Source of the DNA: a virus
Taxonomy: Duplodnaviria > Heunggongvirae > Uroviricota > Caudoviricetes
Virus record (IMG/VR): IMGVR_UViG_3300014205_008670
Coordinates: 64,001-96,846 of that record
Reading direction: 5' to 3' (one strand)
Length of the DNA: 32,846 bases
Below are positions 81-31,476 of this stretch, one piece after another. The notes beneath the pieces were generated by a model. The model made no database searches, was not told the origin of the DNA, and worked only from the letters and a program-made list of their open reading frames with translations. The first letter of the stretch is position 1. Each line of letters opens with the position of its first letter. Position numbers and translations under genes: made by a program.

Positions 81-1265
81 ATGATTGAACTTGATTTCAT
101 AAAAGAAATTCCAATAGGAATATATGGAATTTTTTTGTTTTTATATTTGTTTAGTCAGATACTATACTCTATTCTTGAGAAAAACAAACAAAATAAAGTT
201 AAAGATATTATATTAGAAAACTTTCCATTTGTTTCAATATTGGTGCCATTTTACAATGAGGAAGAAAAAGAGTTAGACGAAGCAATACAATCTTTATTGG
301 ACTTAGATTATCCAAAGGATAAATACGAAATATTGTTAATGGATGATGGATCTGACAACAATGTTTCTGAATATATTGTCAATAAATATAAAAATGAAAT
401 AAAAATATTTTATCAAAAAAATAAAGGTAAAAGAGAAGCACAATATGCCCTAACAAAAGTCAGGGATGATCGTGCCATTTTTTACCTTACAGTTGATAGT
501 GATAGTGTTTTGAATAAGAACTGTTTAAAGGAAATTGTAAAGACAGCAGTTTTATTTCAGTGTGAGGCTGTAACTGGAGGAATTTTAGCGAAAAAACAAA
601 ATAATTTTTTAAACAGACTTCTCAGGATACGTTATTGGACAGCAAACTGGCAAGAAAGATTATCTCAAAGTTATTTTAACCAAATTGGATGTTGTTCTGG
701 TCCATGTAGTCTTTGGAATGCTGAAATTTTTGATAAGGTAAGTGACGAATATATATCACAAATGTTTTTAGGGAAAAAATGTACCTATGGTGATGATCGT
801 CATATGACAAATCTTTTCTTAAGAGAAAATTGTAAAATGAAAATGTCAAATATTGCATATTGTTATACAACTACTCCGGAAACTTGGAAAAAATGGATGA
901 AACAACAATTTAGATGGTCCAAATCTTTTTATAGAGAAAGTATTTGGATTACCTTAAACTTAAAAGGAAAAATTTGTTGGTTTTTTATATATCAAAATAC
1001 TATATCATTTTTGTTACCATTTATCTTACTGTCAAACTTATTTATTTATTTAATATTTTATTCTCCAACAAAATTTGCTATTTTTCTATATTTACTTTCT
1101 GTATTTTTATCGGGCTTAATTCGTGGATTATATAGCTTTTTTTGTACTAAAGACCCTACTTATTTTTTGGCTCCAATTTATGGTTTTGTTCACTTTATTA
1201 TCGTATTTCCAATAAAGATAATGGCCTTGTTTAAACTGAAAGATACAAGTTGGGGGACAAGGTAG
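81..1265 (+). CDS. Hyaluronan synthase / NodC-like processive GT2 glycosyltransferase, membrane-bound
   Basis: Motifs PFYNE, DDGS, NKGKREAQ, TVDSD, CCSGPC, QMFLG..GDDRHMTN, QQFRWSKSFYRE (QxxRW), a C-terminal TM bundle and terminal SWGTR. These are collinear with streptococcal HasA and rhizobial NodC; GDDRH and WGTR are the HAS-type variants. Confidence 0.85.
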   Translation: MIELDFIKEIPIGIYGIFLFLYLFSQILYSILEKNKQNKVKDIILENFPFVSILVPFYNEEEKELDEAIQSLLDLDYPKDKYEILLMDDGSDNNVSEYIVNKYKNEIKIFYQKNKGKREAQYALTKVRDDRAIFYLTVDSDSVLNKNCLKEIVKTAVLFQCEAVTGGILAKKQNNFLNRLLRIRYWTANWQERLSQSYFNQIGCCSGPCSLWNAEIFDKVSDEYISQMFLGKKCTYGDDRHMTNLFLRENCKMKMSNIAYCYTTTPETWKKWMKQQFRWSKSFYRESIWITLNLKGKICWFFIYQNTISFLLPFILLSNLFIYLIFYSPTKFAIFLYLLSVFLSGLIRGLYSFFCTKDPTYFLAPIYGFVHFIIVFPIKIMALFKLKDTSWGTR

Positions 1266-4701: not shown

Positions 4702-7371
4702 TTATACTTTAGTAGGATTATTGTACTCATCAAGATGAAGTTTTTCTTTAAACTTCATTGTATCAGTAAAACTAACATCGTGCAAGTCTGTGGCATCTTT
4801 AATTTCTTGTTCTTTGAAAATCAAAGCTTTTTCATAAATATTTCTTGCACCGGCATTAAAAATTTCTATTCGTTCGTCATCATCATTTGCCGATTGAGCC
4901 ACAGTTAAAAGTTCTTGTAATTTTGGTTCCAAGAACCTAATAACATCTAAAACTATATGTTCACCATTAATTTTACTTGAGGATACTTGATACTCTTCTA
5001 CTTCTCCCTTTAAACAATCAACATAACTAATGTTTTCATTTTCCGACTTATTCTTACAATAATTTTTAAACTCTTCGTCACTTGACATTAAAAAAGCATC
5101 TATAAAAAGCTCATCTAAATTCCATACTAAATCTTTTATTTTTTCAAGAAATACTTCGCCACTCTTCTTGTCTATTATTTTCTCGAAAAGAGGATGTTCC
5201 TGAACTGCGAATAGAACATCAAGTTCTCCTGCGGTCAACCTACTTAGGCCATTTTTGTCCATTATCCAAGATGAAATTTTCATTGAATCCAACCTTGTGG
5301 ATGAATGTTTACTCCACCTTTTTTTAGCCCTTTCTCTTTGTTTTTCACTAAAAGCTCTTTCTCCCAATTCTTCTCTTTCTTTTTTTATTTTTGTTTTTGC
5401 TGTTTCACTTTGATAGTCACTATATCCTTCTTTTCCCTTTTCCTTTTTTAATCTTTTATGTCTATCTTTTCCACCATATTCATAGGAGCCTTCTTCTTTT
5501 GTTTTCTTTTTGTGTTTATCTTTTTTTACCCATTCTAAATTTTCTTTTGTATCAGTTCCCTTTTTCCATCTAGGAATTTTGTGATCTAACTCATAATGAC
5601 CCTTGCCTTTTGGTTTGTCAGGAATTTCTTTTGCTTTTATTCTAGGTCTTCCAGATATCTTAGAATATGAACTAATAACTTTTTTTTTACCGCTTTCAGT
5701 TAGTTTTAACAAAACACTTAAGCTAGAAGTTGTTGGTGGTATAGATCTATTCACTGGTTCTAAAGTTGTATTTTCTTGAATCCCGTTAGAAACCATTGTT
5801 TCTAAAAATTGTTGAAATTCTCCAGTATCTATTTCTTCAGAAGAATACCAATATTCATCTAAAACATCTTTTTCTTTTTGTTCCCAATATTTATCATCTT
5901 TTTTTAATAAGTGGGGGTTTGCATAAACATATAAAGGAATAAAGTCTTTTACATGCTCAAGAATGCTAGATACTTTTACACTCTCTTCGTTAACTATGTT
6001 TTCTTCTAAATTGTTTGGGTTGTAAACAACGTCTTCCGGCAACGTTGCATCTGCATTTGTGTTATCTGTAACGTCTATTATATTTCTTATATCGTCATCT
6101 ACAAATAGAACACGTTTTTCGTTTGGAATAAACATACTTTTTGGAAAATCATGTGCAATAACAATCATTTCCTTAAAGTAACCCAATATATTAAATCCCT
6201 TTAAAATTTGTATGACTGGCTGATCTTGATATTGAACTCCACTTTTTTCAGAATGACTAATTAAGCCTATCTTTTTATCTTTATAGAATAACCCAGCCAG
6301 CATACTACGTACACCATCTTTCAGAACAATTTTTTTACCGTTAGAATCAGTAACAGTGTTTTCTTCAAAAGTAAAAGGCGAATTCATTTCATATGCCTTT
6401 TCACCATCCCAAAGTGTTTTATCAGCATCAAATATAAAAACATCATAGTCATCTTGAGTTATTTTTTTATATTTAGATGCATAATAGTTCATACCCATTT
6501 CACCAAGAGTTTCAGATATCCTTTCTATAATATTATTGTTTAGTAAAATCCAATTATCAATATTTACATTTGAGTTAAATATAGACTTTAATGCCAATAG
6601 AATTTTTGTTTTTTGATTTTTAGAAATATCTATATCTGAATATCTAGGAAGTGCCAGTTGGGCAGCAATTTTTAATTTTTCTTCATTTACATTTTCCGTT
6701 AAGCCTATAGAACAATCCAACATCTCTCTTCCTATCTCAGAAAGATATTTGTTGTAAGAATTTATCTCACTAACTACATTTATATTGTGTTCTGGAAGAT
6801 TTTCTATTTCGTAGTCCCAGTTACTTTCTTTTCCAGCTTTTTTTACTATTCCTTCATGCTGATGAAAATGATTTTCAACATCATGAAAAACCAATCCATA
6901 TGGTTTGGCATCTACGAAATTTTCATGAGAACTATCGCTGTTATATCTTTTTCTAAGATCTAAAGATTCAGGTTGGTTTATAACACTATATTTTTTTTCG
7001 TAATTTTGCATTAAGTTCCAAATATCAGCCACAATTAAAACACTATGTTTTCTTCCAAGTTCCGCCTGCTTTTTAAAACCATCTATGTCTGAAGCTAGGT
7101 TTGTAAAAAATTCTTTAGCAGACTCTTTTGTTTTAAATGTAATGTAATTTCTTTGAAGAACTTGACCTATTAAGTCATTTTTAAGTAGGAACGATACCCT
7201 ATATAGGTTTTCACCCCAAGGAGATAACATAATATCGGCTGTAAGAGGGGAAGAATATTTATCAACAGCGGCCATGGATATTTTTTTATTTTCTTTATCT
7301 TCTTCATTTTCAGTATTATAGATATTTATTGTTCCACTATTATTCTGAATATTTATTTCTTGTTTTGACAT
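4702..7371 (-). CDS. 889-aa multidomain protein: MDP-1-type HAD phosphatase + HNH nuclease domain
   Basis: VFIFDADKTLWDG..PF....TDSNGKKIVLKDGVRSML..ISHS..FVDDD (~6050-6450) matches magnesium-dependent phosphatase-1, especially the archaeal form. YELDHKIPRWKKGTDTKENLEWVKKDKHKKKT (~5500-5600) is an HNH motif. Flanking regions not recognised. Confidence 0.75.
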   Translation of the reverse strand: MSKQEINIQNNSGTINIYNTENEEDKENKKISMAAVDKYSSPLTADIMLSPWGENLYRVSFLLKNDLIGQVLQRNYITFKTKESAKEFFTNLASDIDGFKKQAELGRKHSVLIVADIWNLMQNYEKKYSVINQPESLDLRKRYNSDSSHENFVDAKPYGLVFHDVENHFHQHEGIVKKAGKESNWDYEIENLPEHNINVVSEINSYNKYLSEIGREMLDCSIGLTENVNEEKLKIAAQLALPRYSDIDISKNQKTKILLALKSIFNSNVNIDNWILLNNNIIERISETLGEMGMNYYASKYKKITQDDYDVFIFDADKTLWDGEKAYEMNSPFTFEENTVTDSNGKKIVLKDGVRSMLAGLFYKDKKIGLISHSEKSGVQYQDQPVIQILKGFNILGYFKEMIVIAHDFPKSMFIPNEKRVLFVDDDIRNIIDVTDNTNADATLPEDVVYNPNNLEENIVNEESVKVSSILEHVKDFIPLYVYANPHLLKKDDKYWEQKEKDVLDEYWYSSEEIDTGEFQQFLETMVSNGIQENTTLEPVNRSIPPTTSSLSVLLKLTESGKKKVISSYSKISGRPRIKAKEIPDKPKGKGHYELDHKIPRWKKGTDTKENLEWVKKDKHKKKTKEEGSYEYGGKDRHKRLKKEKGKEGYSDYQSETAKTKIKKEREELGERAFSEKQRERAKKRWSKHSSTRLDSMKISSWIMDKNGLSRLTAGELDVLFAVQEHPLFEKIIDKKSGEVFLEKIKDLVWNLDELFIDAFLMSSDEEFKNYCKNKSENENISYVDCLKGEVEEYQVSSSKINGEHIVLDVIRFLEPKLQELLTVAQSANDDDERIEIFNAGARNIYEKALIFKEQEIKDATDLHDVSFTDTMKFKEKLHLDEYNNPTKV

Positions 7372-7411: not shown

Positions 7412-7440
7412 ATTCTAATTTTATTCAAATATATCCTTTA
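7412..7440 (-). promoter_or_regulatory. Putative phage promoter TAAAGG-N17-TAGAAT
   Basis: Minus strand: AAGG (7438-7435), 17-nt spacer, TAGAAT (7417-7412), ~40 nt upstream of the 889-aa gene start. Same architecture as the copy at 19842-19868. Confidence 0.55.
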
Positions 7441-7882
7441 TAGAGGATATTACAATTTCAGGTCTTACAAAACAGTCTTCGTCAAAATCTTCTTGATGCC
7501 ATTGGTCAAACTGAAATTTCCTTAAATATTTTCTGTCTTTTACTAAATTAATATTATCCTTATATCCAAAAATATTTGGATCAGATTTTGACCAAATAAC
7601 AACACCCTTTTTATTTCTATAATTTGCAATATGCTGGAAATAGGAGTCTACAGAAATCCAACTGTCACAATTATCTATTTCAAAACATAATTCTTTAAAG
7701 ATTTTGTCTAAAATAAATCCACTTATATTATTAAATTTATTTTCTTTAGAAATTCCAACTTGATATATGCTATAGCTTTTAGAAAGTTCGTCTATTACAT
7801 TTTGCCACCAAGGATAATTCTTAGGATTAGTCTTGTCATTATTTAAAATTGAAGAATATGGCGCTATTAATATTTTTTTCAT
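7421..7882 (-). CDS. GT9 (heptosyltransferase-like) C-terminal Rossmann half
   Basis: ILIAPYS..KNYPWWQNVIDEL..IYQVG..WISVDSYFQHIA..GVVIWSKSDPNIFGY..NINL; TAATG coupling to the upstream glycosyltransferase gene. Confidence 0.7.
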   Translation of the reverse strand: MKKILIAPYSSILNNDKTNPKNYPWWQNVIDELSKSYSIYQVGISKENKFNNISGFILDKIFKELCFEIDNCDSWISVDSYFQHIANYRNKKGVVIWSKSDPNIFGYKDNINLVKDRKYLRKFQFDQWHQEDFDEDCFVRPEIVISSIKDIFE

Positions 7883-10173
7883 TATAGATACATCTCCCTG
7901 TATGCTTCAACAATACTTCTTTCCCATTTTCTTTTTGCCATCCAAAGATAAATATTATACTGTTCCATATTATTAGTATGTCCACAACCTTCTTCTATTG
8001 ATATGAGATTAACGCTATTCTTGTAATCTTCAAAAATTTCCAAATGGACAACTGCTATTGTTATTTTTTTATCTTTATATTTTTCTATTATTTCAGGTAA
8101 AATATTTAAAAAGGCGACATGATCTCCTTTTCCACCAGTTATATGTATATATTTTTCGTCAGTATCATTATTTAAAAATTTTACTCTATTTAAAAAAATT
8201 ATTTCATCTTTCACCCAAAAAGATTTATCAGTATGAGATCTAATTCCACCATTTGTATTTTTAAAATGCCAAACCTTAATAGAAGGGTCAATAATTAAAT
8301 CCCAACCATTTTTAAACATTTCATATGTAAATAGAGTTTCTTCTCTATGACCGACTGGTGATAGATTCATATTATACCCATGATTTCCGGCTTTAACTCT
8401 ATATAAAAATGTACAATTTAAATGTTCTGTTTTAAATGGATCTTGTTTGTTTATATCATAAACAAACCACTGAGGATTTGGCTTACAGTCAACACAGTCT
8501 TCGATTTTTGTATTTAAATTGTTTACATGAGAAAAATTATAACTATCTGGGAATAAAACAAGACTTCCTGCTGCCCCAACATTTTCATCTTTAAAATGTT
8601 TTAATAAAGTTTCTAAAACATTTGATTCAGCATAAACGTCATCATCTAATCTCCAAATTAAATCTGTTTTCACCTTTCTTAATGCCATTTCATGATTAAA
8701 AACTTGACCATTCCCTCTTGAGTAAACTACTTCCCAAGTTATTCCATTTCTATGGAAAGCATTAAAAAGATTCATATAAACAGATTCTTTTGTTAGATCT
8801 CTTTTTTCTCCATCTTCAAATAACATAAAATGATCTGGTTTTACTGTTTGTCCTATAATACTGGCAATAGAAATAGGAAGGGTGTCAAAATACCTGTCCC
8901 TTGTTGATATAGTAGCAGTAACCGTTAATTTTTCCGATTTAAAAAACTGATAAACACCTTTTTTGTCACCTATATATAATGGCTCTAAATCAGGATATCT
9001 TTCTTTCATTATTTCTGGAGTAAGATCTTCCTGTATATGCTTTTCATATGGATTACCATATAGTTCATCTTGTTTATATTTCCAAGGAACATGAATAAGC
9101 CCATTAATAATTCCACTATCTTTTATTTTTTTAATTAGTTTTTTTGAATCTTCAATATTTATATGCTCAAGAACGTCACCTAAAACAACTAAATCATATT
9201 TGTTTTTATTAAAATCAAAAGTAACTGCATCTTCGAAATAAACATTGTTATAGATTTCTCTTAAACCATTTTGTATTATATTTGGCTCCCAAACCTCAAT
9301 TGCATCAACTATCTTATAATTTCTTTTTAAAAGTATTGAATAAATTCCTTCACCAGCACCTATATCTAAAACTTTAAGGTTTTTATCTGGATAATTATTA
9401 ATTAACCAGCTAATAGAAAGTTCTCTAAAGAAAGGGTAGCTTCCTCCACCGTGATTTTTATCACTCCCATATTTATTTTTTAATAACTGAGAGTTTTTAT
9501 CAAAAGATTCTTTATATTCTTTTATTTTTTTTACCGTTTCCCCACCCTTATGGTAAATAGGAAAGCCTCCAACAAAAAATCCCTTATCTTGATTAACAAA
9601 GAGTTTTTCATTCTTATATGGAACTTCTACTGTTTTATAGTTGCCATTTTGCGCCTTGATACAAAACTCACAATCTTCACCACCACCTAAACCAAACTCT
9701 TCATTTAATGGTCCAAACTTATCAAAAGATTCACGACTTATCATAACACAAAAAAATATTAAAAAATCTTTTCCAGAAAAAAAACAATGGTTTAAAACAG
9801 GTCCAGTTACAGCTACATTATCTTCTAAAAAAAACGGAAGTTCTAAGTGCTTTATCCATTTGTTTTTTTCTTGATCCAAAAGGATACAATCATCATTAAG
9901 AAGTATTAAAAATTCTCCAGAAGAAATAGATACTCCGTGATTTATTGCGGCTGGATATCCTATTGATTTTTTAAGACATTTAAAATCAAAAACAGTAGGA
10001 TATTCTTTTTTTTTGTTTTTTAAATAATCTAAAGACTCCTGCGGCGCTCCATTTAAAACTACTATAACTTCTATATTTTCTAAATTTGTAAATTTTATAA
10101 TACTATCTATACATTTTTTCATACCATCACAATTTGTGTAAGAAGGTATTATTATAGAATATTTTTTGTTCAT
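7882..10173 (-). CDS. Multidomain glycosyltransferase: GT2 - SAM methyltransferase - GT2 - GT9 N-terminal half
   Basis: N-terminal SIIIPSY..LLNDD (GT-A); VLDIGAGEG and YDLVVLGDVLEH (class I MTase); second GT-A domain ATISTRDRY..IWRLDDD; C-terminal ITGGKGDHVAF resembling the GT9 GGxGD motif. Confidence 0.85.
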   Translation of the reverse strand: MNKKYSIIIPSYTNCDGMKKCIDSIIKFTNLENIEVIVVLNGAPQESLDYLKNKKKEYPTVFDFKCLKKSIGYPAAINHGVSISSGEFLILLNDDCILLDQEKNKWIKHLELPFFLEDNVAVTGPVLNHCFFSGKDFLIFFCVMISRESFDKFGPLNEEFGLGGGEDCEFCIKAQNGNYKTVEVPYKNEKLFVNQDKGFFVGGFPIYHKGGETVKKIKEYKESFDKNSQLLKNKYGSDKNHGGGSYPFFRELSISWLINNYPDKNLKVLDIGAGEGIYSILLKRNYKIVDAIEVWEPNIIQNGLREIYNNVYFEDAVTFDFNKNKYDLVVLGDVLEHINIEDSKKLIKKIKDSGIINGLIHVPWKYKQDELYGNPYEKHIQEDLTPEIMKERYPDLEPLYIGDKKGVYQFFKSEKLTVTATISTRDRYFDTLPISIASIIGQTVKPDHFMLFEDGEKRDLTKESVYMNLFNAFHRNGITWEVVYSRGNGQVFNHEMALRKVKTDLIWRLDDDVYAESNVLETLLKHFKDENVGAAGSLVLFPDSYNFSHVNNLNTKIEDCVDCKPNPQWFVYDINKQDPFKTEHLNCTFLYRVKAGNHGYNMNLSPVGHREETLFTYEMFKNGWDLIIDPSIKVWHFKNTNGGIRSHTDKSFWVKDEIIFLNRVKFLNNDTDEKYIHITGGKGDHVAFLNILPEIIEKYKDKKITIAVVHLEIFEDYKNSVNLISIEEGCGHTNNMEQYNIYLWMAKRKWERSIVEAYREMYL

Positions 10174-10175
10174 AG

Positions 10176-11351
10176 TTATTCCCTTAGTAATTTTTTATAT
10201 AGATTATAATGCTTGTCTGCCGAGCTTTCCCATGTAAATTTTTTACAAACATTATATCCATTTTCTATCATTTTACTTTTTCTATCTTCCGACATATCCT
10301 TTAACCCATAAAGAGTTTTTGAAATTCCCTCAGAAGATAAATCTTCTATTTTTATAGCACAGTTTTCTGTAAGATATTCATTCATACCACCAACAAACGA
10401 AGCTATCAATGGAGTTCCACAGGCCAAAAATTCAAGACCAACTAATCCAAATGGCTCGTATATACTTGGAAAAATTCCATAATCAGCACTTTTCATACAA
10501 TTTATCTTATCTTCACCGGATCTAAACCCTATATATTTGACATTTTTTTTAGATTTTAAAACTTCTGACATAAAAACAAATATATCAGGATTTGAACCAA
10601 TAAACCCTCCCATTATTATCAAGTCCATATACTCCGGTATATCTGCTCTTAATAAGTTTAAGATGTTCTTCATTAAATCTAATCTTCCACAAAATAAAAC
10701 TTTTATTTTATTATCTCCATCAAGTTCTATCTTTTTAAAATTAAGATTGTTTATGTAGTTAAAGTCTACACCATGATGAATAACATTATATTTGCCATGA
10801 ATACATGATTTTTTTCCATCTATTTTATTTAAAAATATTCTTTCATTACTTTTTAAAATTGCTAATTGTTCCAATGCTCCAGCATATTTCATTGTTTCTT
10901 TTTCAACACTTTTAGCATCAAAAAAATCTTCCTTATATTTAATTAGTTCTTCTGCCATCATAGAAATACTTAACTGTAAACTAAAAACTGTTTTTATGCT
11001 ATAGTCAAAATAATCTAAAATAGCCAATGTTAATGGAACTGAAGTCCAATCTTGAAAGTGAATTATATCTGGTTTTTGTATATTTCTTAAAGCAGTAGAT
11101 ATAGATAAAGGAACACTATCTAATACAGATATTATTGGATCTGTAGATTTATATAAGGTTGAGTTTTTGCTTATTGATATTATTTTTATTTTATCATATT
11201 GTTTAACTTCGTTTACGTTGCAAATACATATTATTTCTATTTCAATGTCATCATATTTGTCTACTAAAGAATGTATTATTTCTTTTACAGAAGATCCTAA
11301 TCCACCAAAAGAGTGGTAAATATGATCTCCAATTATATATAATATTTTCAT
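10176..11351 (-). CDS. GT4 family glycosyltransferase (GT-B fold)
   Basis: GGLGSSV, PDIIHFQDW, IHHGVD, FCGRLDLMKN, PSIYEPFGLVGLEFLACGTPLIASFVGGMNE, FTWESSA. Confidence 0.92.
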   Translation of the reverse strand: MKILYIIGDHIYHSFGGLGSSVKEIIHSLVDKYDDIEIEIICICNVNEVKQYDKIKIISISKNSTLYKSTDPIISVLDSVPLSISTALRNIQKPDIIHFQDWTSVPLTLAILDYFDYSIKTVFSLQLSISMMAEELIKYKEDFFDAKSVEKETMKYAGALEQLAILKSNERIFLNKIDGKKSCIHGKYNVIHHGVDFNYINNLNFKKIELDGDNKIKVLFCGRLDLMKNILNLLRADIPEYMDLIIMGGFIGSNPDIFVFMSEVLKSKKNVKYIGFRSGEDKINCMKSADYGIFPSIYEPFGLVGLEFLACGTPLIASFVGGMNEYLTENCAIKIEDLSSEGISKTLYGLKDMSEDRKSKMIENGYNVCKKFTWESSADKHYNLYKKLLRE

Positions 11352-13840
11352 ATATCAAAAGCGGCGACCTTGTATGTAGTTGTATTAGTCTGAGAAGTTG
11401 TTGCTAAATTATAAAACCTTAAATTTAAATCAGGGTTCGTACCAGACATCCATGCAGTTTGTAGTACGATAAAACTTCCAGACATTTCTAAGGCGCCTGT
11501 TATTAACCCACCAACAGATCCATAATAAAATCCAAAAAGAGGTCTTCCGGCTGGAAGTGAATTATAACAAAATATTGACTCATCAAGATATACTCCTATT
11601 GCATAGGTATAACATTCTTGATATGTGGTTCTTGGGCGCATACAATAAGTATGATCAGTAAAGACCATCATAAATTGACCAAACCTAGTTGCATAGCTGG
11701 AAGCAGCAGCATCCAACTCTTTGTCAAATGTTCCGAAATTTATTCCTTGAAAATTAAAAGTAACAATATCGTTTTTTGCCACTTCTGTTGCTGAATCTGA
11801 ATTTCCGGGACCTATTGTAAGCATTGTATTTAAATCTAAAGATCTGATTGTAGCGTCTGAGGTTGTGTTTGGAAAAAAAGCAATTAAAGCTCTTTTTTTA
11901 TTAGTTAATCCAGCTAAACTTATTGTATTTGTTATGCCCGTTGTCGCTGAAATTGCAGCACCAGCATTTATTTGAAATGTAGTTATTACAATATTAGTTG
12001 AAGATAAAAACGTTACATTTTCTCTATGATAATCGTCTGGAGTAAAAATTCCTCCAGACTCAAATCTAGCCTTAGGAGATCCTCCGGCTGTTATTCCAAT
12101 ACTATCAGCAGCATTATGAAATATACCAGTGTTTGTGTCTGTTGAAAAATAAATAGAGGGAACACCTGAAGTTCCTTCTATAAATTGTGATACTGTTTGT
12201 AAATAAATTTTTGAACCAGATAAATTTACATCTCCTACAGCAGACCCTAATGTTGATCCTCCATATAAATTTACATCCCCCCCATCACCATCTCCAAAAC
12301 TACCATCAAAATAAGTCCCAGCAGTCCCACCAGTTATTGTAATATCACCCCCATTGGCTGTTGATGAGCTTGTAGTTGATCCTCCATGACCACCTGTAAT
12401 TACTATTCCTGGTGGCAACCCAGAAGCAGTTCCACTTTTACCGCTTACCGTGAGACCGTATAATAATAAAATATCATTTGCATTAGATGCTTCTTTTGAA
12501 AATCTTGCAATAGCAACACCGCTTCTGGTTATATTTAAAGAATCAGCAGCAGATGAAAAAATACCTGTATTTAAATCTCCAGTAAACGTATAAGATGGGG
12601 TTCCAGATAATCCAGAACCTGCAATATGCAAACCGCTTGTATATTCATAAAAAGAATTTATTATATTATAAGCAGAGTTTTTCGATGGTGCTATTGTTGT
12701 TACAGTGCTCCACGAAGATGCATATGCTGTATCTGAAACATTTGCAGTTCCTGAATAACCAGAGATACCTGAATAACCACTATATCCAGATATACCAGAA
12801 TCTCCTGAAAACCCGGAAATACCAGAATCACCATTACTTCCCGAAAAACCAGAATACCCTGAGTAACCACTTATTCCATTGGTTCCTGAATAACCCGAAT
12901 CACCATCTATTCCATTAATTCCTGAATAACCAGAGTATCCTGAGTATCCAGAAGATGTATCTTGAGTTTGATTAATAAATCCTAAAGCTAAAAAATAATC
13001 AAGTGAATTTACGTTAGACCACTCACCCTCATATCCATATCCATATGAATATCCGTATAATAAAATGTCTCCTTCTGAAAGAGAATATAAACTAATATCA
13101 TTAATACTGTCTAATGAAGTTATTGTTTCTCCAGAATAGCCGCTATATCCAGAATATCCGCTAGTCCCTTCTGTTCCTACCGTTCCATTTTGACCACTAT
13201 AACCAGAATAACCAGAATATCCCGAATAACCAGAATCACCGTCTATTCCTACTGTTCCATTTTGACCACTATATCCAGAATAGCCAGAAACTTGATCTAT
13301 ATTTGATGATATAGTTAATGTGTTTAATGTATCGTTATATTCTATTGATATATTATTTCCCTCAACCAAAAGGGAGCTTATTCTATCGTCTATTTTTTCA
13401 TTAAAATCAGTAATTGATTCTGATGTATGGGTATGATCTGATCTTGAAACATTTGTTGATATTCCATTATTGTCAAAATTTGCTTTTAATATAGCTCCAC
13501 TATCTACTTTTAATCCATCACCGACAATATATGTTGTTGGTCCTCCCTTTAATGAAGTAGATGAATTTTTTCTTGCACTTGCTAAAGATTCTGATTTTGC
13601 TGGAGAAATATTTGAAATTCTATTATTATTTTCATCATATAAATACAAGGTTTCTTCTTGTATAAGTGTATCTAAATTTCTAGACATACTTATTTGTTCT
13701 AAAGTTCTTAATTTTTTACCATAAATATTTGGTGCTAATAGGTCTATTCTATCTCCAATATTTTTAATTAAAATATCAAGATCTTTAATATATACATTGT
13801 TCTTTCTGGCTTCAATTATTCTTTTTATAGATTTAGACAT
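11348..13840 (-). CDS. Tail-fibre/spike-like structural protein with collagen-like (SGY)n repeats
   Basis: Phage fibre-type motifs SRSDHTH, ITDFNEKIDDRI..LVEGNNISIEYND, SDTAY..SW..APSKN, and two copies of PS.F..D.NTGIF..AADS. Two Gly-X-X repeat blocks and Gly-rich GGDITITGG/GGDVNLYGG repeats. Confidence 0.75.
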   Translation of the reverse strand: MSKSIKRIIEARKNNVYIKDLDILIKNIGDRIDLLAPNIYGKKLRTLEQISMSRNLDTLIQEETLYLYDENNNRISNISPAKSESLASARKNSSTSLKGGPTTYIVGDGLKVDSGAILKANFDNNGISTNVSRSDHTHTSESITDFNEKIDDRISSLLVEGNNISIEYNDTLNTLTISSNIDQVSGYSGYSGQNGTVGIDGDSGYSGYSGYSGYSGQNGTVGTEGTSGYSGYSGYSGETITSLDSINDISLYSLSEGDILLYGYSYGYGYEGEWSNVNSLDYFLALGFINQTQDTSSGYSGYSGYSGINGIDGDSGYSGTNGISGYSGYSGFSGSNGDSGISGFSGDSGISGYSGYSGISGYSGTANVSDTAYASSWSTVTTIAPSKNSAYNIINSFYEYTSGLHIAGSGLSGTPSYTFTGDLNTGIFSSAADSLNITRSGVAIARFSKEASNANDILLLYGLTVSGKSGTASGLPPGIVITGGHGGSTTSSSTANGGDITITGGTAGTYFDGSFGDGDGGDVNLYGGSTLGSAVGDVNLSGSKIYLQTVSQFIEGTSGVPSIYFSTDTNTGIFHNAADSIGITAGGSPKARFESGGIFTPDDYHRENVTFLSSTNIVITTFQINAGAAISATTGITNTISLAGLTNKKRALIAFFPNTTSDATIRSLDLNTMLTIGPGNSDSATEVAKNDIVTFNFQGINFGTFDKELDAAASSYATRFGQFMMVFTDHTYCMRPRTTYQECYTYAIGVYLDESIFCYNSLPAGRPLFGFYYGSVGGLITGALEMSGSFIVLQTAWMSGTNPDLNLRFYNLATTSQTNTTTYKVAAFDI
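12749..13288 (-). repeat. Two 9-nt-period coding repeat blocks (13130-13288 and 12749-12952) encoding S-G-Y / x-G-x triplets, with a 72-nt internal duplication
   Basis: Gly at every third residue over 53 aa and 68 aa. CCTAC(C/T)GTTCCATTTTGACCACTAT recurs 72 nt apart (~13176 and ~13248). Confidence 0.9.
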
Positions 13841-28170: not shown

Positions 28171-31100
28171 TTATCTAGCTCCTGTTCTGGCTACTCTTAA
28201 TTTTGGAAGTCCTATAACCCCATCTCTTCCGAGTGTCATAGCATAGCAAACTCCGCATAAACAGTCACAAAGATCATCATCTGGATAATCTTTTGAATCA
28301 GGATTTTTTACAATTGATGGATCTTTTTTACTGTGATCTATAATTATATTTTTTAATTCACCCTGAAGTTCAACGTCGTCACTACATAATTCTATTCTAT
28401 TGGACATAAACAAATTCCTTGTGTTAGAATAAATATTAAACTTTTGTCTTCCGGCAAATCTTAATTCTAACAGGCTAGAACATTTATATTGAATTTTTTT
28501 TCTTTGCTCTCTCGTAAATATTCCGTCAAAAGAAGTACAAACAATATTAAATCTATAAAATAGTGGCAAAATATATTCATCTACTATAAAATCAGGATCT
28601 AGCGCAACACCACCCTTTGGCTTTATAAAATAGGAGTAATCTTCTACACAATACTCTATTTTTTGCCTTATTTCACTGTCAAATCTATTTTCAGAATGGG
28701 CCAATAAAAAAGCATACCTGTCAGAAGTTTCAGCAGCATCTATGTGTAAATAATATTGGTATGCTGGATTTCCTTTGGATTGCATCACCCTTCCCCTTTC
28801 CATTGACAAATCAACTTTTTCGGGAGGGAAGTATAAAGAGTTTACTCTTCTTAAAAATCGAGCACCGTATTCAGTTGCAGCGGATTCAGGGTCTTGTCTA
28901 AATTCAGATTCGAGAATACTCTTAGGAACACGAGGATTAATATTCCAAGTTGGAACTTGAAACATTAGTATTGTAGGTTCAACCTTTCCATCTAGGTAAA
29001 GATCATAAAACTTACCACTAGGAGTATATGGTGATGAAAGAACAATTTGTCTACCATCTCCAAGCATTTTATAGGTTGCAGAGGACCTAGAAAGAGCACT
29101 ATATACCTCTTTCCCTGATCCTGATCCATTTGTCTCCACAAAGTGTGCCATTTCGTCATATATAACACAATTATGGTTTAAGATTCCATCGGCAAAAAAA
29201 GATTTATCTTTATCGTTTTCAAAAGAAAAATCATAAACAAAATCGCTTTTAATAAAATCACTTTTAATAAATTTTACAAATTTAAATTTATTATTTAATT
29301 CAAATTCTTTTTTTGATTCATCAGATAGTAAGTGTAATATTTCTTTTATTAAATTAAAATTATTTCTAGACATTCCATTTTGTTTTTTATTTAATAAATC
29401 TCTTATTGAGGAAAGTAAATTATTTCTACTTTTTTTATCTAAAATAAACTTATTTAAAATTATTATGTTTTTAACATCAATAAGAAAGCTATCAGTTAAC
29501 TTAATACTTTCATATCTTGTATACTTATTCTTAAATTCAAATTTACTATAATTATTTCTTCTTGATGAGAAAAAACCAATTGTATTGTAATATTTTTTGG
29601 CGAAAAAATTATACATGGTAACTCTATAAAAATCATTTCCAGATTTTATTTTTTTACAACTTATATTGTTATTTATATCCAATTCATTTAAAAGAAATGA
29701 TACATCTAATGCCAGCCTTTTCGATATAGTACAATATTGTATGTTTTTTTTCCCTTGAATCCCATCCCCCTCAAACAATGATTTTAGAAATGAAATTATA
29801 GTTTCTTTCTTTGATTTAAAAATACATGCAGGTATTATTTTACTTTTTGATAATTTATTTTCGAGTCCAATTGTTTTAGAAAGAAAATATTTTATTTTAT
29901 CATTGGCAAAATCACAAATATATGCTGTTTTATAGGTTGGTTTAGATGGATCTCTTTTCCTTGTTTTAATTTCAATATCAATATTAAATATTTTTTTTAT
30001 TTTATTACAATAATCTTTCGCAACATCAAAATCTGTAGTTATAAATTTTATTGAATTTTTAATACTATAGTTTCCTTCAGATATTAGATATCCAAGTATT
30101 GAAGCCAAATCATTATCACATTCTTTTGGAAAAGTAATATATGTATCTCTTATTCTATTTTTATAAAAACTTGTATTTTCTTTACCAAATTTCTCAGTAT
30201 ATTCTTTATATGAAATTCCATGACTTTTAATATGGTTATTTGTTATCTGAACATATTTATTTCCACATATTTTACATGTTTCATTTTTCTCATGGTTACT
30301 TGTAAAATGTGGAAGGTTTTCTTTAAATTCTTCTGAAAATATAAAATTATCTAAAGAAAATTTACCACAATTAGATGATTTTACTATTGTTGAATTTTCA
30401 TTTAGATCTTTAACAGTTTTTTCAACTATATTATTTCCTTCTTTAACAAATATTTTATGATCTTTTGTGCAAGAAAGAATTGTTCCATCGGAAAATTTGT
30501 AATCATAAATATTGTCTATTCTTTTTATAAAATTTGTAGTTTCATGTATTCCGTTGGCTCCATATAATTTTTCTTTCAATGAGTACGTTCCAACGTCTAT
30601 ATTTTTCAAACCATCTTCAATTCTAAAATATCCATTTTCACCACATATTAAGGAATTACCGTCTAAACAAATCGCACTTTTACCCCTCAATCCTGCTGAG
30701 TTAGAAGATCCACTCTTCAAAACAATAGACCCAATCATATGATCTTCAGCAAACTCAGTATTAAAACCAGCCAAATCCTTGTTTGTTAATATGTGTAATT
30801 CGTCCTGTGTGTTTTTGCCAATTCTACCATCAAATGCGGGACATTTCCTTATAAATCTTTTTACTTCGGTAAAGATAATGCTTTCAGCCTGTTCGGCAGA
30901 AGTTGCTGTATTTATTATATAAATTGGTGAATTTATTTTATAGAATTCTTGTGGATCTTTCAACATAAGAAGCTTGTATGCTTCGTATGAAGAAATTAGT
31001 GCTGAGAGATATGACTTTCCAGATCTTCTACCAAGAACAAGTATTAAATCTAAAAACCAAAGAGGGCTAAATGTTTTTTCTTCTTCCGGAACAAATTCTC

Positions 31101-31476
31101 CCTTTATTTCCCTCTCATATATGTCTTTTCTTTTACTATATTCTTTCTTTCGCCTTTCTTCATTTGAGTATTTTTCATGCCACTTTATTTTTGAATCTTC
31201 ACCGTAAGTAATCCAAGTTTGTTCTATATCAAAAGAATTTATTATTTTTAAGTCATTATCGTCTATTTTTAAATCTTCATTAAATCTGCTTCCTGCATAA
31301 AAAAACTTTACAATGACCCTTTGCCCAGCACTAAGAGATTCTTTTAAAAGTTTTTCAGAAAAGTCTATGATATTTAATGGACTATTGTAGTCCATTGCTT
31401 TTTCTTTTTGAACTTGTCTTACACTTATTTTTAAAAGTTCTTCAATGTTTATTTGTTCTTCCCTTCTTTTAGCCAT
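28171..31476 (-). CDS. terL: Terminase large subunit, intein-containing (~601-aa mature protein)
   Basis: Walker A VLGRRSGKS, SAEQAESIIF, LRGKSAI|CVIYDEMAHF (Walker B), coupling motif VLSSP..SGKFYDLY, RNase H-like HIDAA..D, and C-terminal DDDLCD. Confidence 0.93.
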   Translation of the reverse strand: MAKRREEQINIEELLKISVRQVQKEKAMDYNSPLNIIDFSEKLLKESLSAGQRVIVKFFYAGSRFNEDLKIDDNDLKIINSFDIEQTWITYGEDSKIKWHEKYSNEERRKKEYSKRKDIYEREIKGEFVPEEEKTFSPLWFLDLILVLGRRSGKSYLSALISSYEAYKLLMLKDPQEFYKINSPIYIINTATSAEQAESIIFTEVKRFIRKCPAFDGRIGKNTQDELHILTNKDLAGFNTEFAEDHMIGSIVLKSGSSNSAGLRGKSAICLDGNSLICGENGYFRIEDGLKNIDVGTYSLKEKLYGANGIHETTNFIKRIDNIYDYKFSDGTILSCTKDHKIFVKEGNNIVEKTVKDLNENSTIVKSSNCGKFSLDNFIFSEEFKENLPHFTSNHEKNETCKICGNKYVQITNNHIKSHGISYKEYTEKFGKENTSFYKNRIRDTYITFPKECDNDLASILGYLISEGNYSIKNSIKFITTDFDVAKDYCNKIKKIFNIDIEIKTRKRDPSKPTYKTAYICDFANDKIKYFLSKTIGLENKLSKSKIIPACIFKSKKETIISFLKSLFEGDGIQGKKNIQYCTISKRLALDVSFLLNELDINNNISCKKIKSGNDFYRVTMYNFFAKKYYNTIGFFSSRRNNYSKFEFKNKYTRYESIKLTDSFLIDVKNIIILNKFILDKKSRNNLLSSIRDLLNKKQNGMSRNNFNLIKEILHLLSDESKKEFELNNKFKFVKFIKSDFIKSDFVYDFSFENDKDKSFFADGILNHNCVIYDEMAHFVETNGSGSGKEVYSALSRSSATYKMLGDGRQIVLSSPYTPSGKFYDLYLDGKVEPTILMFQVPTWNINPRVPKSILESEFRQDPESAATEYGARFLRRVNSLYFPPEKVDLSMERGRVMQSKGNPAYQYYLHIDAAETSDRYAFLLAHSENRFDSEIRQKIEYCVEDYSYFIKPKGGVALDPDFIVDEYILPLFYRFNIVCTSFDGIFTREQRKKIQYKCSSLLELRFAGRQKFNIYSNTRNLFMSNRIELCSDDVELQGELKNIIIDHSKKDPSIVKNPDSKDYPDDDLCDCLCGVCYAMTLGRDGVIGLPKLRVARTGAR
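29170..30669 (-). mobile_element. Intein (500 aa) with LAGLIDADG endonuclease and C2H2-like zinc finger, inserted just before TerL Walker B
   Basis: Starts CLDGNS, block B SCTKDH, helices ILGYLISEG and FLKSLFEGDG, ends FVYDF..FFADGILNHN, +1 Cys. Contains CKICG..NNHIKSHGISYKEY. Confidence 0.95.

Follow-up and report, generated by a model that had tools for sequence, protein, structure and literature searches.

What does a tailed virus of prokaryotes make with an enzyme that resembles a hyaluronan synthase (HAS)? Virus-made hyaluronan coats are known from chloroviruses, the algal giant viruses, and the gene at positions 81 to 1265 of the window raises the question of a counterpart in bacteriophages. 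By the window we mean the whole stretch of DNA that was analysed, 32,846 nucleotides that make up the final third of a linear virus record of 96.8 kb. A first-pass annotation had described the gene product (hereafter P0001) as an intact 394-residue membrane glycosyltransferase of family GT2 that carries every class I HAS/NodC motif, with a HAS-type GDDRH and a terminal WGTR. Its description as an intact membrane GT2 holds: the frame runs uninterrupted from ATG to TAG over 394 codons without an internal stop, the Pfam GT2 profile matches at 1e-22, and the predicted model matches the HAS fold. The named motifs are present as well, namely PFYNE (60), DDG (88-90), GKR (116-118), DSD (139-141), RYW (184-186) and CCSGP (204-208), followed in the C-terminal half by CTYGDDRH (234-241), QFRW (276-279) and WGTR (391-394), which is indeed the end of the protein. 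The features of the locus, in window positions, are as follows.

1-80, no strand: intergenic DNA, bounded by the GT2 gene and, immediately outside the left window edge, a divergent 118-residue gene
81-1265, + strand: processive membrane GT2 of the HAS/NodC family, 394 residues (P0001; open reading frame, profile and fold)
108-173, + strand: sole N-terminal membrane helix, approximately residues 10-31, equivalent to HAS TMH2 and NodC TM1, without a preceding TMH1
429-431, + strand: K117, equivalent to CvHAS K177 and XlHAS1 K218 (alignment)
495-503, + strand: metal-binding motif DSD (139-141), equivalent to CvHAS D201/D203
630-632, + strand: R184, equivalent to XlHAS1 R287 and CvHAS R247; Glu in NodC and PgaC
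645-650, + strand: N189-W190, clade-specific, in place of the acceptor-collar Phe-Asn (XlHAS1 F292)
789-803, + strand: GDDRH (237-241) with catalytic base D239, equivalent to CvHAS D302; GED in NodC
903-917, + strand: QQFRW (275-279), the QxxRW motif, with R278/W279 equivalent to CvHAS R341/W342
978-1229, + strand: two membrane helices (300-325 and 331-356; HAS TMH3-4) and interface helix IF3 (359-383)
1251-1262, + strand: WGTR gating loop at the protein end; TMH5-6 of viral and vertebrate HAS are missing
1295-1801, + strand: 168-residue HNH nuclease gene, 29 bp downstream of the GT2 gene, marking the insertion site
28171-31476, - strand: intein-containing terminase large subunit (terL)

The proposed setting in a tailed virus was confirmed by terL and by the genes for the major head protein and portal, which lie upstream on the same contig. 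The head protein matches phrog_2522 (6e-72) and shares 54% identity with gp27 of Bacillus phage G, and the occurrence of head protein, portal and terminase on one contig identifies the virus as a Bacillus phage G-like jumbo phage (Caudoviricetes). Related head proteins occur in records whose sizes extend to 316-548 kb, so the 96.8-kb record most likely covers just part of a jumbo genome, and its rating as '100% complete' is probably misleading. The closest homologue of P0001 (P0002, 67% identity) sits on contigs of 180 and 349 kb; the 180-kb contig has a head gene 96% identical and the same gene order, in independent ENA and Logan assemblies. A relative with a 93% identical head protein (G006) is collinear across the entire window, but there the 118-residue and HNH genes adjoin without the synthase and thus form an empty site, and the DNA before the P0001 gene loosely resembles the DNA before the HNH gene in G006. 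The synthase gene occurs in none of 27 related records, five of which are rated at least 90% complete. The synthase gene is accessory and has a defined insertion site; its history may be gain in one sub-lineage or loss in others. We rejected the HNH gene as a dedicated partner, as it is present without the GT2 gene in G006, G008 and G009.

Nine proteins with 41-67% identity to P0001 form a single branch (SH-aLRT 100, quick tree), to which we refer as the clade. A profile search of 1.8 billion representatives recovered just four 50% clusters of the clade before a large drop in score, all four already contained in the profile, and a metagenome scan with P0001 as the single query found no close relative. 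Wherever the flanking DNA of a clade member is long enough, its setting is that of a large phage; three members are on contigs too short to judge. The neighbors of these genes include helicase, UDG, RNA ligase, intein-bearing DNA polymerase III and ThyX, and PARP, and one clade locus (L009) encodes a head protein with 91% identity across 80 residues. Because dN between P0001 and P0002 is 0.25 against a dS of 1.8, and because all catalytic residues are invariant across the clade, the clade is under purifying selection and its enzyme is being kept active.

Host DNA or a chimeric assembly, the latter a concern of the first-pass annotation, might be suspected from the position of the gene at the window edge, on the strand opposite to most window genes. 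We consider this extremely improbable: phage genes flank the synthase on both sides, its gene order is repeated in independent assemblies, and its composition (GC 27%, GC3 0.21) falls inside the range of the genome. Among the best 80 of at least 546 GTDB matches, all with 40% identity or less, there is no clade member. The synteny at L005-L007 and the empty site of G006 refute this explanation.

Elsewhere in the window, positions 7421-13840 encode a 153-residue protein, a GT2-methyltransferase fusion (763 residues), a GT4 (391 residues) and a collagen-like fibre (830 residues). This run is unmatched in the corresponding stretch of G006 except for the collagen repeat, is partly present in G008, and is possibly a virion glycosylation cassette. 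The 889-residue product of positions 4702-7371 combines an MDP-1/acid-phosphatase-like domain with an HNH-like insert, which the 729-residue relative at L005 lacks. PADLOC placed P0001 in no defence family, and the promoter scan gave 10 matches where 18 were expected, which is below chance.

The AlphaFold model of P0001 (pLDDT 91, pTM 0.90) is predicted to have one N-terminal and two C-terminal membrane helices together with IF3, and to end at WGTR. In a structure search with this model the top 13 matches were all HAS from Chlorella virus and Xenopus (TMq 0.85-0.88), whereas chitin and cellulose synthase structures reached a TMq of at most 0.65. The best sequence matches among solved structures were likewise XlHAS1 (4e-44) and CvHAS (2e-38), and the resemblance is much too strong to be accidental. 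All characterised class I HAS have four or six membrane helices (PMC10939387); the class is defined by two N-terminal helices in a total of four (I-R) or six (I-NR), and the predicted P0001 has three with a single one at the N-terminus. The topology of NodC, in comparison, has been mapped as three helices and argued to lack a channel, and NodC, which has a 'ruler' pair formed by Leu19 and Arg349, yields short cytoplasmic oligomers only (PMC4132801). By prediction and alignment only, this pair corresponds to L19 and R348 of P0001, which also shares Y22 with NodC. The membrane body of P0001 is thus modelled as NodC-type.

The same alignment positions can be viewed from the side of HAS. In XlHAS1 the ruler positions are M69 and K448, which line the open channel, and Arg or Lys is found at the R348 position in HasA and CvHAS too. 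Most of the channel-lining residues of XlHAS1 lie, by alignment, on TMH2-4 and IF3, which P0001 keeps; TMH1 with its loop carries a few, and TMH5-6 carry none. The channel positions L312, L316, N319 and R348 are invariant within the clade, as is Y337, and two of these residues, N319 and Y337, are located in the outer half of the helices. In CvHAS, TMH1 is unresolved, yet hyaluronan is made, and a lateral opening is thought to release short hyaluronan. We infer that a channel through P0001 would take the form of a laterally open groove built from the equivalents of HAS TMH2-4 and IF3.

To describe the active site we used the residue roles given in PMC11750622 and PMC12987647. The CvHAS positions E93, K177, D201, D203, R247, Y248, R256, C267, GDDR 300-303, R341, W342, R348 and WGTR 454-457 are identical in P0001, the equivalent of Y299 is also kept, and R442 is replaced by K379. 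P0001 thereby has the single cytoplasmic GT2 domain (with a predicted HAS fold), DxD, GDDR and QxxRW of class I HAS, as well as its WGT(R/S) gating loop, residues 391-394 being equivalent to CvHAS 454-457; this loop is essential. K177 and R341 of CvHAS, corresponding to K117 and R278 of P0001, form the pocket for the glucuronate carboxylate (PMC12987647), and R287 and R296 of XlHAS1 are located next to GlcA-2 within the channel and required for long hyaluronan (PMC11750622). The basic glucuronate-associated residues of XlHAS1, K218, R287, R296, R381 and K448, are represented by K117, R184, R193, R278 and R348, which are invariant in the clade.

Not all of these residues are informative, as the equivalents of K177, R341 and R256 are present in NodC too and therefore do not discriminate HAS from NodC. 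Three positions do, and P0001 is HAS-like at all three: R184 (Glu in four NodC and PgaC), D238 (Glu in NodC) and WGT (WLS in NodC). The first-pass reading of GDDRH as HAS-type is accordingly upheld for D238, which separates HAS from the GEDRH of NodC, but not for the histidine, which is undiagnostic given GDDRR in PBCV-1 HAS and GDDRC in Bacillus cereus HasA. The claim that every motif is present also needs one exception. The acceptor collar, defined by XlHAS1 Y288, F292, C307, D342, R343, W382 and S385, is kept at six of seven positions, and F292 is replaced by N189. Nine of the ten clade rows have Asn at this position and the remaining one has Ala, and in nine an aromatic residue follows; Phe is found in 130 of 148 family members, and NodC has Cys. 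As judged from sequence, P0001 has a HAS-type active site with one change, and the acceptor site of the clade has been remodelled.

CvHAS (PBCV-1 A98R; PDB 7SP6-7SPA, 8SNC-E and 9YQ2-5) and XlHAS1 (8SMM-P), both of class I-NR, share its fold, and CvHAS is likewise virus-borne. P0001 differs from both in having only about 26% identity, in lacking TMH1 and TMH5-6, in DDGS instead of IDG and in the collar Asn, and from CvHAS also in residing in a prokaryotic virus, where linked ugd or GFAT was not found. Bacillota HasA (hasACB of B. cereus G9241 pBCX01 and the streptococcal class I-R enzymes; 31% identity) resembles P0001 in ending at or near WGTR and in DDGS, R184, GDD and RWxKSFxRE, but has two N-terminal helices and ugd/galU as neighbors. 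NodC has the length, the out-in/in-out/out-in topology and the L19/R349 pair of P0001, but only 24-26% identity, and differs in EYW, GED, RWARST, WLSR and its nodB neighbor. The closest cellular homologues (35-40% identity) are short HAS-like GT2 proteins of Enterococcus and Lactococcus plasmids (WP_002334573.1), CPR bacteria and archaea; the plasmid proteins, at 37%, are the nearest from cultured organisms. Proteins of this type have about 395 residues, the same build with one N-terminal helix and the same motifs, but they keep the collar Phe, their Bacillota members are linked to ugd, and a sister grouping with the clade is rejected (p 0.007).

Several identifications could be discarded. TIGR04242 (NodC) covers positions 6-394 of 395 at 191 bits against a cut-off of 550, which, together with differing motifs, the missing nodB neighbor and an AU p of 0.003, argues against P0001 being a NodC; a nodB-type deacetylase (PF01522) was not found in the 97-kb record. 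PgaC/IcaA was rejected on the basis of TIGR03937 (86 bits against a cut-off of 422), 21% identity to a PgaC and GDD rather than TED. Fungal and oomycete chitin synthases (EDR, QRRRW), which were not represented in the trees, were rejected on GDDR, QQFRW and a TMq of about 0.6 or less. Among GenBank phages nothing is close to P0001, the best match being gp79 of the cultured tailed Streptomyces phage Kromp (MH744420), a processive GT2 ending near WGTR with 24% identity. We rejected gp79 as a cultured HAS-type example, as it has SDDS instead of GDDR, no R184, and MRWMRGS. By fold and active site, then, P0001 is predicted to work like a class I HAS, but we do not file it as a HAS member, because its helix number and collar residue differ from those of the class; the first-pass annotation had overlooked both departures.

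The phylogeny leaves the clade standing on its own, outside the characterised HAS clade. AU tests rejected its union with NodC (p 0.003), Bacillota HasA (p 0.0003), viral and eukaryotic HAS (p 0.024) and the Enterococcus/CPR short type, and the tree therefore assigns no product to the clade. These tests, like the supports, come from a quick tree (LG+G4) with long branches and with groups partly chosen after seeing a tree, built from a set excluding vertebrate HAS, Streptococcus pyogenes and S. equisimilis HasA and the pneumococcal type 3 synthase. The first-pass assignment to the HAS family nevertheless survived, in that P0001 clusters neither with NodC nor with PgaC. NodC itself (L050-L053) forms a long branch inside the HAS-motif family, beside actinobacterial members and with modest support (86-90), a hint that the ancestor of NodC was an enzyme bearing HAS-type residues.

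The wider family is widespread, a breadth that the first-pass annotation had missed, and its GTDB matches include CPR bacteria, archaea, Actinomycetota and Bacillota. In two actinobacterial HAS-like synthases (L073:4959-7049 and L093:613-2316) the C-terminus is fused to an EAL domain or to a response-regulator receiver, which suggests that signals control the polymer synthesis. Upstream of archaeal HAS-like genes (L057, L066, L069, L070, L074, L075, L081, L087 and L089) there is a conserved gene encoding a small protein of about 164 residues with a signal peptide, and a membrane protein is often encoded downstream. The family is also represented on 37 viral contigs, among them those of giant viruses and, on branches other than the clade, of small terminase-bearing phages. 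HAS-type genes on viral contigs of 22-107 kb (L013-L016, L018, L041, L020, L031, L044 and L046) belong to at least three other branches, and a terminase match was present in four of five such contigs tested, which indicates that the HAS family was acquired several times by phages. The first-pass annotation knew of no characterised phage example, and we found no phage-encoded HAS or NodC in the open-access literature; HAS-like genes in other terminase-bearing viral contigs make this one less singular than it had seemed. The same contigs define a recurring phage theme, of which the clade is a stand-alone variant.

The first-pass annotation had noted that the window holds no UDP-glucose dehydrogenase or GFAT gene. 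This is correct and extends to the 64 kb upstream: ugd, glmS, nucleotidyltransferase, deacetylase and TolC-family genes are absent from the whole 97-kb record, itself most likely one part of a much larger genome, and no gene for an outer-membrane exit was found. No clade member has ugd beside it within the flanks examined, which were often short, and the ugd-like genes in three of 27 related records all occur without the synthase. In 13 of 14 control genomes ugd was detected, so that a phage need not carry its own copy, and the enzyme would rely on host UDP-sugars. In a Gram-negative host the polymer could leave the periplasm only by way of a host channel. There is no conserved small membrane partner: the short hydrophobic reading frames either shadow genes on the opposite strand or are unrelated from one locus to the next.

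The short homologues offer an analogy for the substrate. On the Enterococcus and Lactococcus plasmids they lie 37 bp from a nucleotide-sugar dehydrogenase gene, and across the family ugd is linked at 13 of 16 Bacillota loci as against 1 of 64 others, with flanks that are often short. By analogy, this linkage ties the three-helix build to uronic-acid substrates. The two-gene cassette of ugd and a short HAS-like gene on Enterococcus faecium plasmid NZ_CP118956 (L011:6747-9164), annotated as 'glycosyltransferase' only, also occurs on dairy Lactococcus plasmids (L056, L064, L068, L090 and L101), and is possibly an unrecognised hyaluronan-type capsule locus.

How P0001 might differ from a hyaluronan synthase in its product can now be weighed. 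A NodC-like enzyme, with a three-helix body lacking a through-channel, would release its products, short GlcA-GlcNAc oligomers or chito-oligomers, inside the cell, where they could serve as signal, decoy or precursor for the other glycosyltransferases of the phage (window 7421-11351). The length, topology and almost full-length profile match to NodC, the aligned ruler pair with Y22, and the lack of a conserved export partner next to the gene all fit such an enzyme. We regard it as unlikely all the same, given the profile score far below cut-off, the rejected grouping, the Arg or Lys that HasA and CvHAS also have at the ruler position, the invariant outer-half residues N319 and Y337, and a record that has no nodB-type deacetylase.

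If the chain is exported, it might still be neutral or otherwise not hyaluronan (chitin-like, a glucan or GalNAc-containing), the exchange of Phe for Asn and Asn for Trp at the collar having altered the choice of sugar and the missing ugd reflecting no need for UDP-GlcA. The clade-wide collar change and the scarcity of ugd linkage outside Bacillota point this way, and in the tree NodC is a branch of the HAS family that switched to a homopolymer. The sampled GlcNAc-homopolymer enzymes (NodC, PgaC), however, have Glu at position 184 and ED, whereas the clade keeps Arg and GDD, and with ugd so frequent in control genomes its absence from often short phage flanks says little; we find such a polymer distinctly unlikely. 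It is also conceivable that the enzyme acts as a drain on host UDP-GlcNAc and UDP-GlcA that suppresses capsule or wall synthesis, its product being incidental and forming no coat. A stand-alone gene without precursor or export genes would suit this role by inference only, but the conserved channel positions and gating loop suggest selection on product handling, and we rate the drain as very improbable.

We are nearly certain, from sequence, that P0001 is an active processive synthase encoded by a true phage gene. Glucuronate in the product is somewhat favoured, because of R184, GDD and the ugd link of the look-alikes, and a long exported chain is moderately probable in preference to short oligomers. 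The combined reading, in which host UDP-sugars are built into a glucuronate-containing polymer (hyaluronan or a variant) that is exported to form a coat, falls a little short of probable, and authentic hyaluronan is a doubtful identification of the product. Against the combined reading stand the three-helix NodC topology, the collar change, the absence of ugd nearby and of an exit gene, and the lack of grouping with characterised HAS. In this mechanism an accessory gene of phage-G-like jumbo phages would place a self-priming processive synthase in the host cytoplasmic membrane. UDP-GlcNAc (or a similar neutral sugar) and UDP-GlcA would be drawn from host pools and added alternately, and the chain would be threaded out through the laterally open groove of three helices and IF3. 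Such synthesis would yield hyaluronan or a closely similar chain with glucuronate, and, to go by CvHAS, its molecular weight would probably be low. More speculatively, by analogy with the chloroviruses and as the first-pass annotation had suggested, the polymer may coat and protect the infected cell, hiding receptors from competing phages or predators during the long infection of a jumbo phage. The boldest form of this proposal, in which the three-helix synthase is the smallest architecture that makes and exports a glycosaminoglycan and its altered collar yields hyaluronan or a new glucuronate polymer cloaking the bacterium, seems rather unlikely.

The novelty of the finding is tempered by the fact that neither the enzyme family nor its use by viruses is new, that the family is widespread in CPR bacteria and archaea, and that other phages hold independent members. 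For glycobiology, P0001 is a natural hybrid with a HAS active site on a NodC body and a changed acceptor collar. It makes two questions testable, namely how few helices suffice to transfer a polysaccharide across the membrane and which residues decide between hyaluronan and chitin, and as a single-gene synthase of 394 residues it is an easy target for expression. If an exported acidic polymer is made, one phage gene would build a capsule-like layer on the infected cell. This would be a route to superinfection exclusion that we did not find in the open-access literature, and the bacteriophage counterpart of the chlorovirus hyaluronan coat.
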